Part shown: positions 8,009-10,847 of the stretch, in pieces
Layout of the letters: every line of letters begins with the position of its first letter
Position numbering within the stretch: position 1 is the stretch's first letter
NCBI RefSeq assembly: GCF_017348835.2
Contig: NZ_CP071375.1
Direction: 5' to 3' (one strand)
Length of the DNA: 64,000 bases
Origin: Escherichia coli
Lineage (GTDB): Bacteria > Pseudomonadota > Gammaproteobacteria > Enterobacterales > Enterobacteriaceae
Translations under genes and position numbers: made by a program
Notes under the pieces: model-generated
What the model was told of the DNA's origin: nothing
Seen by the model: the letters and a program-made list of their open reading frames with translations, nothing else
The model's database searches: none

Positions 8009-9382
8009 TTAATGCGCTTTTACGGCTTTGGCGGTTTTCTCTTTAAACAGATAGCCGATACCTAACACGATCAGCCATACCGGGATCAGGTATACCGAAA
8101 TCGCCATTCCTGGGGTCATCAGCATAATCACCAGTACCGCCGCCATAAACAGCAGGCAGATCCAGTTACCCAGCGGATAAAGCAGAGCAGGGAAGCGAGT
8201 TACCACGCCTTGTTCCTGCTTGGCGCGGCGGAATTTCATATGCGCCAGGCTAATCATCGCCCAGTTGATCACCAGTGCAGATACCACCAGCGCCATTAAC
8301 AGGCCAAATGCGGATTCCGGAGCAAGATAGTTAATCAGTACGCACAATGCCGTTACCAGTGCAGACACCAGAATGGTGTTAACCGGTACGCCGCGTTTAT
8401 CGACAGACGCCAGCGCTTTTGGCGCGTTACCCTGTTGTGCCAGACCAAACAGCATACGGCTGTTGCAATATACGCAGCTGTTGTACACGGAGAGCGCCGC
8501 AGTCAGTACCACGATGTTCAGCGCATTCGCCACAAAGGTATCGCCTAACTCGTGGAAGATCAGCACAAACGGACTGGTATCGGCGGTAACGCGGGTCCAC
8601 GGCATCAGTGAGAGCAGAACGGCTAACGAACCAATATAGAAAATCAGGATGCGGTAGATAACCTGGTTAGTTGCTTTCGGGATACTTTGCTCCGGGTTAT
8701 CAGCTTCTGCTGCGGTGATCCCCACCAGTTCCAGACCACCGAACGAGAACATGATAATCGCCATCATCATCACCAGCCCGGTGAAGCCGTGCGGCAGGAA
8801 ACCGCCCTGATCCCACAGGTTGCTAACGCTTGCCTGCGGACCGCCGTTACCACTGAACAGCAGCCAGCCGCCGAAGATGATCATCGCTACTACCGCAATA
8901 ACTTTGATAATGGCAAACCAGAACTCCATCTCACCAAACACTTTTACGTTGGTCAGGTTGATGGCGTTAATCACCACAAAGAACACGGCGGCAGAAACCC
9001 AGGTTGGGATTTCCGGATACCAGAACTGAATGTATTTACCCACAGCAGTCAGCTCTGCCATGGCAACTAAAACGTACAGTACCCAGTAGTTCCAGCCAGA
9101 AGCGAAGCCAGCAAAGCTGCCCCAGTATTTATAAGCAAAGTGGCTAAAGGAGCCTGCGACAGGTTCTTCGACCACCATTTCACCCAGCTGACGCATGATC
9201 AGAAAGGCGATAAAACCAGCAATGGCGTAACCCAGGATAATCCCTGGCCCTGCGGACTGTATTACGGAGGCGCTACCCAGGAATAACCCGGTCCCTATCG
9301 CGCCACCCAGCGCGATAAGCTGAATATGGCGGTTTTTAAGGCCGCGCTTTAGCTGCTCGCCGTGCTGTTGACCTTCCATCAT
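8009..9382 (-). CDS. aroP: aromatic amino acid:H+ symporter (APC family)
   Basis: 457-aa ORF MMEGQQHGEQLKRGLKNRHIQLIALGGAIGTGLF; 12-TM permease. Confidence 0.95.
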   Translation of the reverse strand: MMEGQQHGEQLKRGLKNRHIQLIALGGAIGTGLFLGSASVIQSAGPGIILGYAIAGFIAFLIMRQLGEMVVEEPVAGSFSHFAYKYWGSFAGFASGWNYWVLYVLVAMAELTAVGKYIQFWYPEIPTWVSAAVFFVVINAINLTNVKVFGEMEFWFAIIKVIAVVAMIIFGGWLLFSGNGGPQASVSNLWDQGGFLPHGFTGLVMMMAIIMFSFGGLELVGITAAEADNPEQSIPKATNQVIYRILIFYIGSLAVLLSLMPWTRVTADTSPFVLIFHELGDTFVANALNIVVLTAALSVYNSCVYCNSRMLFGLAQQGNAPKALASVDKRGVPVNTILVSALVTALCVLINYLAPESAFGLLMALVVSALVINWAMISLAHMKFRRAKQEQGVVTRFPALLYPLGNWICLLFMAAVLVIMLMTPGMAISVYLIPVWLIVLGIGYLFKEKTAKAVKAH

Positions 9383-9874
9383 GAAACCTCGTGCGGTGAT
9401 TGTTTTTTTGATCTACGCAGTGATGCGTGTGTAAGTTTGCAATTCCGTTTGTTGTATTAATTTGTTTACATCAAAGAAGTTTGAATTGTTACAAAAAGAC
9501 TTCCGTCAGATCAAGAATAATGGTATGCGGCAGCGAATGCACCCGCTTTATGCATGGTTGAAGATGAGTTGCTTAAAAAGAAACCGTTTGTAAATCTCAG
9601 CCTCAACCCCTCTCAATATGCAGAATGAATTTAAATTCGTTTTAACTGAATTAAAAATCACAAAATTGGTAAGTGAATCGGTTCAATTCGGATTTTTATA
9701 GTTTAATAATCGTTAAAAAATCCCTTTCCTACGTAAAGTCTACATTTGTGCATAGTTACAACTTTGAAACGTTATATATGTCAAGTTGTTAAAATGTGCA
9801 CAGTTTCATGATTTCAATCAAAACCTGTATGGACATAAGGTGAATACTTTGTTACTTTAGCGTCACAGACATGA

Positions 9875-9891
9875 AATTGGTAAGACCAATT
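9875..9891. promoter_or_regulatory. PdhR operator (GntR-family palindrome) in pdhR promoter
   Basis: aattggtaagaccaatt perfect inverted repeat ~30 bp upstream of pdhR ATG. Confidence 0.75.
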
Positions 9892-9922
9892 GACTTCGGC
9901 AAGTGGCTTAAGACAGGAACTC

Positions 9923-10687
9923 ATGGCCTACAGCAAAATCCGCCAACCAAAACTCTCCGATGTGATTGAGCAGCAACTGGAGTTTTTGATCCTCGAAGGC
10001 ACTCTCCGCCCGGGCGAAAAACTCCCACCGGAACGCGAACTGGCAAAACAGTTTGACGTCTCCCGTCCCTCATTGCGTGAGGCGATTCAACGTCTCGAAG
10101 CGAAGGGCTTGTTGCTTCGTCGCCAGGGTGGCGGCACTTTTGTCCAGAGCAGCCTATGGCAAAGCTTCAGCGATCCGCTGGTGGAGCTGCTATCCGACCA
10201 TCCTGAATCACAGTATGACTTGCTCGAAACACGACACGCCCTGGAAGGTATCGCCGCTTATTACGCCGCGCTGCGTAGTACCGATGAAGACAAGGAACGC
10301 ATCCGTGAACTCCACCACGCCATAGAACTGGCGCAGCAGTCTGGCGATCTGGACGCGGAATCAAACGCCGTACTCCAGTATCAGATTGCCGTCACCGAAG
10401 CGGCCCACAATGTGGTTCTGCTTCATCTGCTAAGGTGTATGGAGCCGATGTTGGCCCAGAATGTCCGCCAGAACTTCGAATTGCTCTATTCGCGTCGCGA
10501 GATGCTGCCGCTGGTGAGTAGTCACCGCACCCGCATATTTGAAGCGATTATGGCCGGTAAGCCGGAAGAAGCGCGCGAAGCATCGCATCGCCATCTGGCC
10601 TTTATCGAAGAAATTTTGCTCGACAGAAGCCGTGAAGAAAGCCGCCGTGAGCGTTCTCTGCGTCGTCTGGAGCAACGAAAGAATTAG
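9923..10687 (+). CDS. pdhR: pyruvate dehydrogenase complex repressor (GntR family)
   Basis: ATG at 9923 gives [21 protein letters not shown]...(254 aa); ORF track starts 11 codons upstream. Confidence 0.92.
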
Positions 10688-10847
10688 TGATTTTTCTGGT
10701 AAAAATTATCCAGAAGATGTTGTAAATCAAGCGCATATAAAAGCGCGGCAACTAAACGTAGAACCTGTCTTATTGAGCTTTCCGGCGAGAGTTCAATGGG
10801 ACAGGTTCCAGAAAACTCAACGTTATTAGATAGATAAGGAATAACCC

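Follow-up and report, generated by a model that had tools for sequence, protein, structure and literature searches.

The spacer between the divergent genes aroP and pdhR raises two questions: whether the pyruvate dehydrogenase regulator PdhR has a second site there, in addition to its operator close to pdhR, and whether a spacer of this length and composition conceals further promoters, a small RNA or a leader peptide. We examined the spacer (positions 9383-9922) within a stretch of 64,000 nucleotides of Escherichia coli DNA, here called the window. A search of 5426 complete E. coli genomes with the 540-bp spacer gave a match in 5423, and the spacer has 99% identity to its counterpart in K-12 MG1655, in which the coordinate equals the window position + 112169. 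Because of this identity and the MG1655 annotation, we assign the flanking genes as aroP, which encodes the aromatic amino acid:H+ symporter (8009-9382, minus strand), and pdhR (9923-10687, plus strand); both coding sequences are in the list of open reading frames and in the K-12 and RefSeq annotations, and aceE is the next gene after pdhR. The predicted 540-bp AT-rich divergent region is thus confirmed: the spacer is exactly 540 bp, as it is in K-12, and has a G+C content of 35%, compared to 52% for the whole window. Its length, noted as unusual in the original prediction, is kept at 524-653 bp throughout 79 Enterobacteriaceae species, and the MG1655 annotation has no feature in its interior.

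For comparison, pdhR loci were fetched from 80 species; the spacer was shorter than 700 bp in 78 of these, which gave 79 spacers with that of the window. Chance expectations were obtained from 20,000 dinucleotide shuffles of the spacer, and scans for full PdhR sites and for TyrR sites allowed up to 3 mismatches. As a whole, the spacer is probably the two-part control region already known for the divergent aroP and pdhR-aceEF-lpd units, in which the resemblance to a second PdhR site is specific to one lineage and PdhR most likely acts only through its box at +19. Sequence matches, their conservation and spacing, start sites from the literature and the one PdhR box listed by genomic SELEX are the observations on which this reading is built. 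The region is already known and, compared to other divergent control regions of E. coli, is well characterised.

PdhR sites in the spacer

The perfect PdhR box that had been placed at 9875-9891 is indeed there. This site, AATTGGTAAGACCAATT, is the sole perfect PdhR box in the 64 kb of the window and is centred at +19 with respect to the pdhR start. PdhR is a member of the GntR family with the palindromic operator AATTGGTnnnACCAATT. The 17-mer at 9875-9891, which matches it perfectly and is invariant in the species compared, is this operator, with two inverted half-sites separated by a 3-bp gap and with the GGTnnnACC core that tight PdhR binding needs, according to the genomic SELEX study (PMC7660256). 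Column identity of the box is 99% among the 79 species, and the full box, TTGGTNNNACCAA, occurs exactly once in each of the 79 spacers, mostly 45-48 bp upstream of the ATG. Similarly, the published genomic SELEX of PdhR gives one box for the spacer, scored 14/14, at K-12 position 122052. The SELEX peak (121966) lies 86 bp from this box, on arrays that cannot resolve sites 211 bp apart. We considered the position of the peak, between the operator and the putative second site, as a hint of double occupancy and rejected it, since offsets of 68-108 bp are the usual range for single-box targets (81 bp for grcA, 90 for cyoA and 108 for ndh). Bound at +19, PdhR blocks transcription until it is released by pyruvate, and it most likely acts through this box alone.

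The putative second site resembles the left half of the operator. The look-alike aattggtaag is present at 9664-9673 as the original prediction stated, and ggttcaatt is found after it, at 9680-9688; the exact repeat in fact extends over 11 nt, AAATTGGTAAG, occurring at 9663-9673 on the plus strand and again, as part of the operator, at 9874-9884, 211 bp away. A second copy of at least 10 consecutive bases of the box arose in 177 of the 20,000 shuffles (0.9%), a resemblance that is nominally unusual, but for a feature that was picked post hoc. Only the left half-site is present. The full box ATTGGTNNNACCAAT had no match at the look-alike with up to 3 mismatches, and a scan of the entire spacer to the same limit yielded no second full PdhR box. 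Aligned as an operator, positions 9664-9680 agree with the left half at 7/7 positions and with the right half at 1/7 (TGAATCG versus ACCAATT), and the core reads GGTaagTGA where the operator needs GGTnnnACC.

The look-alike has a column identity of 37% among the 79 spacers, which is that of the neighbouring variable DNA. An extra AATTGGT is found at this position in 3 of the 79 spacers (those of the window, of one more E. coli and of one Escherichia species), E. albertii has one mismatch there, and Salmonella, Citrobacter, Klebsiella and the remaining species have unrelated DNA. The look-alike was missing from 75 other Enterobacteriaceae species of the comparison and was found in none outside Escherichia. 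Within the E. coli clade, it is confined to the usp-negative allele of the spacer; the 11-mer is missing from the alternative allele, represented by 1059 E. coli genomes, and is kept in a further, separately fetched usp-negative allele of E. coli that diverges from the window type over the 60 bp upstream of it. Because of this retention and the nominal improbability of the repeat, a weak, lineage-specific function of the 11-mer is possible. The last bases of the 11-mer (AAG) are the flank of a Cra-type operator whose right arm is ggttcaatt.

The claim of a second PdhR half-site is therefore not supported, since the site has no right half, lacks conservation beyond the E. coli clade, is absent from the allele of the 1059 genomes and has no counterpart in SELEX, which gives one box. 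Compared to a PdhR operator, the look-alike has the left half only, lacks ACC, is lineage-specific and is unreported as a PdhR site. A role as a second PdhR operator is therefore unlikely, and the look-alike is best read as a lineage-specific chance resemblance in variable DNA beside a Cra box.

A putative distal Cra-type operator upstream of pdhR

On the evidence of sequence and conservation, the constrained element in this part of the spacer is a putative distal Cra-type operator, and not the PdhR look-alike. Box A, TGAATCGGTTCA (9674-9685), is a palindrome of the Cra/FruR type centred at -185.5 from the pdhR start. It has 1 mismatch to TGAAWCGWTTCA, is perfect to the Cra core TGAAWCSNTHHW and agrees at 11/12 positions with the palindrome TGAATCGATTCA. 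The classical degenerate Cra consensus, RSTGAAWCSNTHHW, reportedly goes back to the work of Ramseier, and box A matches it as well. Box A also fits both the Cra motif derived from ChIP-exo, ctgaAtCGaTtcag, and the known motif, gcTGAAtCGaTTCAgc (Kim et al.). Box B, TGAAACGTTATA (9765-9776), is a second, weaker Cra-like box, centred at -94.5; it is perfect to the degenerate Cra core, lies 91-92 bp downstream of box A and has a column identity of 83%, and would presumably be a Cra site too. Two matches to the Cra core per 540 bp were obtained in 40 of the 20,000 shuffles (0.2%).

Box A is conserved in both sequence and position. In a stretch that is otherwise unalignable among the 79 species, its column identity is 94%, compared to 42% upstream and 52% downstream. 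In 71 of the 79 species, the palindromic TGAAWCGNTTCA precedes the PdhR box by 201-204 bp, and the distance of box A to aroP shifts with the length of the spacer, whereas its distance on the pdhR side is fixed. Moreover, usp-positive E. coli keep TGAATCGGTTCA despite diverged flanks, at a position 250 bp upstream of the ATG of pdhR. In E. coli, the Cra-type box grows to an 18-bp near-palindrome, AAGTGAATCGGTTCAATT (9671-9688), with 14/18 symmetric positions; this extension is unconserved in other genera.

Cra is reported from ChIP-exo and RNA-seq to bind and repress pdhR-aceEF-lpd, opposing activation by CRP (Kim et al. 2018, NAR 46:2901). Given the sequence of box A, Cra is likely to be the protein that binds it. 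Box A shares with Cra/FruR operators, which are bound by a LacI-family regulator at genes of central carbon metabolism, the consensus, the conservation and a place upstream of a Cra-repressed operon. It differs from the repressing Cra sites described by Kim et al. in that those cover the -10 element or the start, or lie downstream of the promoter, whereas box A is ~185 bp upstream of the start. For this operon, the Cra binding described by Kim et al. is 'downstream of two promoters', a phrase that could refer to an intragenic site at 10078-10089, or to box A itself, which is downstream of both the aroP promoter P3 and a marginal start at 9605. The intragenic site is a weaker Cra-like sequence, TGAATCGCCTCA, on the minus strand within the pdhR coding sequence. 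We considered it as the real Cra target and ranked it below box A, as the less likely of the two, since it shows no extra conservation at synonymous sites.

If Cra acts through boxes A and B, the most likely consequence would be a coupling of the PDH operon to flux through glycolysis: low levels of fructose-1-phosphate and fructose-1,6-bisphosphate would allow Cra to bind, and the operon would be repressed. A site at -185 might act by looping to box B, as a roadblock to transcripts from further upstream or by a phase-dependent effect from a distance.

Two control modules and an island insertion site

The pdhR promoter has its start at A 9865 (K-12 122034, plus strand), 58 nt upstream of the ATG by 5'RACE (PMC2759082), with a Cappable-seq score of 1290 and 1225 reads in another start-site map (PMC3415461). 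We read its hexamers as a -35 element TGGACA (9830-9835) and, after 17 bp, a -10 element TACTTT (9853-9858); these fall below the threshold of the promoter scan, and the hexamers of this promoter are known to be poor (PMC2759082). Two sites for global regulators are probably located upstream. The CRP-like site TGTTAAAATGTGCACA (9787-9802), centred at -70.5, has 2 mismatches to TGTGAN6TCACA and is highly conserved, and the FNR-like site ATGATTTCAATCAA (9808-9821), centred at -50.5, has 1 mismatch to TTGATN4ATCAA and is near-invariant. CRP is a listed regulator of pdhR (Kim et al.; PMC2759082), and a ChIP peak of Fnr has been found in the aroP-pdhR spacer (PMC3974632), so that the two candidate sites agree with the reported control by Fnr, CRP and PdhR. 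The 180 bp upstream of pdhR (9743-9922) are ~85-100% conserved over genera. High conservation is also seen within the first ~15 codons of pdhR (9923-9970), in which third-position identity is ~0.9, compared to a mean of 0.58 for the gene (71 species), which suggests that the 5' end of pdhR may be under constraint beyond coding. The pdhR module, at ~9660-9922, would combine occlusion by PdhR at +19 with control by FNR and CRP and, most probably, by Cra at the distal operator of constant distance.

The aroP side of the spacer corresponds to a system that has been described before (Wang, Yang, Pittard 1997-98, as summarised in PMC7142922). It comprises the promoters P1 and P2, which point towards aroP and overlap back-to-back with the divergent, TyrR-activated P3, and two TyrR boxes in the aroP leader, one strong and one weak. 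The P1 start at 9507 (K-12 121676) is listed in the start-site table of PMC3415461 and defines a 125-nt 5' UTR for aroP (9383-9507, minus strand). The strong TyrR box, TGTATTAATTTGTTTACA (9453-9470), has 2 mismatches to TGTAAAN6TTTACA, is the best match in the window and is conserved. The probable weak box, TGTAAGTTTGCAATTCCG (9430-9447), lies 23 bp from the strong box and has more than 3 mismatches; its assignment is suggested by a partial consensus, its position on the aroP side and its conservation. Upstream of the mapped start we read the P1 -10 element as TATTCT (9514-9519, minus strand), which is back-to-back with that of P3, TGGTAT (9521-9526, plus strand), as given in PMC7142922; both are highly conserved. 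Thus, a strong box, the P3 -10 element and the P1 start are all found in the window, along with a weak box whose position is inferred, and there is no difference from the known TyrR system, as the spacer is 99% identical to that of K-12. An inverted repeat, ATGCA-N9-TGCAT (9537-9555), extends over the -35 region of aroP P1 and is highly conserved. The activity of P3 is very low in K-12; in strains that bear the PAIusp island, usp is transcribed from it (PMC7142922). In the aroP module (~9383-9596), TyrR with aromatic amino acids recruits RNA polymerase to P3 and thereby shuts off P1, so that control of aroP is a TyrR-directed competition between these promoters. The two modules appear to join near 9596, exactly at the insertion point of PAIusp.

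This spacer is the insertion site of PAIusp (Rihtar et al. 2020, PMC7142922). Two central-spacer alleles are found among the 5426 E. coli genomes, the window type in 4364 and the alternative in 1059; the latter is only ~60% identical over window positions 9597-9735 and accompanies the usp-imu island inserted near 9594-9597 (RefSeq names usp as tssD). Compared to the occupied site, which is found in ~20% of E. coli genomes, the window has the empty form: its strain is without the island, and the look-alike occurs only in the empty-site allele. Both ends of PAIusp carry a copy of a block resembling TAAAAAGAAA-N6-GTAAAT, identical at 16/23 bases, which is possibly an imperfect target duplication. 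A different insertion is found in CFT073, in which an IS3-family element (1248-2461 of locus L003; window ~9781-9788) lies ~80 bp upstream of the pdhR start and puts ~1.5 kb between both Cra-type boxes and the promoter.

Alternative readings and their weight

The expectation of several promoters was correct, although these promoters were already known (P1, P2 and P3 of aroP and the pdhR start at 9865). Published start-site maps, in which the Cappable-seq sites considered were those of the plus strand, contain the aroP start at 9507 and the pdhR start; beyond the latter, the sole plus-strand Cappable-seq site is a marginal one at 9605 (K-12 121774), with a score of 1.55. This site is just downstream of a conserved block, TTAAAAAGAAACCGTTTGTAAAT (9570-9596, plus strand), at the boundary of the two modules, which has a column identity of 76% and contains weak promoter-like hexamers, TTGCTT and TAAATC, separated by 16 bp. 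As candidates, a small RNA and a leader peptide were both rejected. A search of Rfam with 9383-9922 gave no match, a terminator scan of the spacer gave no terminator-like site and a promoter scan of the spacer gave no site at threshold. Folding indicated that neither the UTRs nor the P3 transcript is unusually stable (z of -0.07 to -0.67, with -0.67 for the aroP 5' UTR). The sole ATG-started open reading frame wholly within the spacer (9618-9701, 27 codons) is not conserved, as K-12 has a stop at codon 2. The suggested small RNA or leader peptide was thus not borne out. A small RNA is found outside the spacer: tp2 (RF02030), a full-length Rfam match at 10732-10845 on the minus strand (103 bits, E = 2e-19), sits between pdhR and aceE, in antisense orientation to the operon.

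Three other readings compete with the bipartite control region, and box A is central to the one that deserves the most weight, which is nevertheless unlikely. In this reading, box A serves another regulator (PlaR/YiaJ, a KdgR-like IclR protein or another member of the LacI family), and Cra acts elsewhere, for instance at 10078-10089. Genomic SELEX of PlaR does include the aroP/pdhR spacer, and the PlaR box, ATnTGAAACnnnGTTCAnTT, also has TGAA...TTCA arms; the wording of Kim et al. and the Cra-like TGAATCGCCTCA within pdhR can be read in the same direction. However, the PlaR box has no match in the spacer at up to 3 mismatches and differs in the gap between its arms (N4 versus N6), and on these two grounds PlaR was rejected as the binder of box A. 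Box A itself is perfect to the Cra consensus and is kept in about 70 species, while the intragenic site has no excess of synonymous conservation. Less probable is a reading in which the central spacer hides a transcript, from an upstream pdhR promoter or as a small RNA or leader peptide, with box A as its operator or roadblock. The hexamers of block 9570-9596 with the start at 9605, P3 transcription running in the same direction and the maintained length of the spacer would fit such a transcript, but 9605 scores 1.55 where the pdhR start scores 1290, and the second start-site map does not contain it. Furthermore, the DNA downstream of 9597 is poorly conserved (42%) and unannotated in MG1655, the 27-codon reading frame is broken in K-12, and neither an Rfam match nor a terminator nor a stable fold was found.

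The remaining reading, which we regard as very improbable, makes the 11-mer a functional, Escherichia-specific auxiliary half-site for PdhR that loops to the +19 operator or competes with Cra at box A. In its favour are the 11 nt identical to the left half of the operator, which few shuffles reproduce at 10 bases or more, the retention of the 11-mer in a divergent usp-negative allele with a single mismatch in E. albertii, and its direct contact with the Cra-type box; in addition, a simple count gives it 8/14, near the weakest genomic SELEX sites, and the 211 bp that separate it from the +19 operator are ~20 helical turns. Against these stand a right half that agrees at 1/7 positions, with TGA in place of the essential ACC, the absence of the 11-mer from the 1059 genomes of the alternative allele and from every non-Escherichia species, and a single SELEX box with the usual peak offset. 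Two points of background also count against it: FadR-type members of the GntR family bind as dimers to two half-sites, and, to our knowledge, neither tetramers of PdhR nor looping by it have been reported. A more specific version, in which AAATTGGTAAG is a recently evolved, Escherichia-specific PdhR half-site set against an ancient Cra operator, such that PdhR tunes the occupancy of Cra or loops to +19, is slightly less probable still. If true, it would mean a lineage-specific cross-talk between pyruvate and fructose phosphates at the PDH operon that has been lost in usp-positive (mostly B2) strains.

The preferred reading thus remains that of a known bipartite control region, with PdhR at +19 and, probably, Cra at box A. 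The extra PdhR site fails the comparative tests, and the significance of the finding beyond housekeeping is small. The comparison does reveal that E. coli has two deeply diverged central-spacer alleles, one that goes with the usp genotoxin island and one with its absence, and that the Cra box is found in both of them. The fixed distance between operator and promoter over genera that marks this footprint makes it a precise target for dissecting the repression of the PDH operon by Cra.
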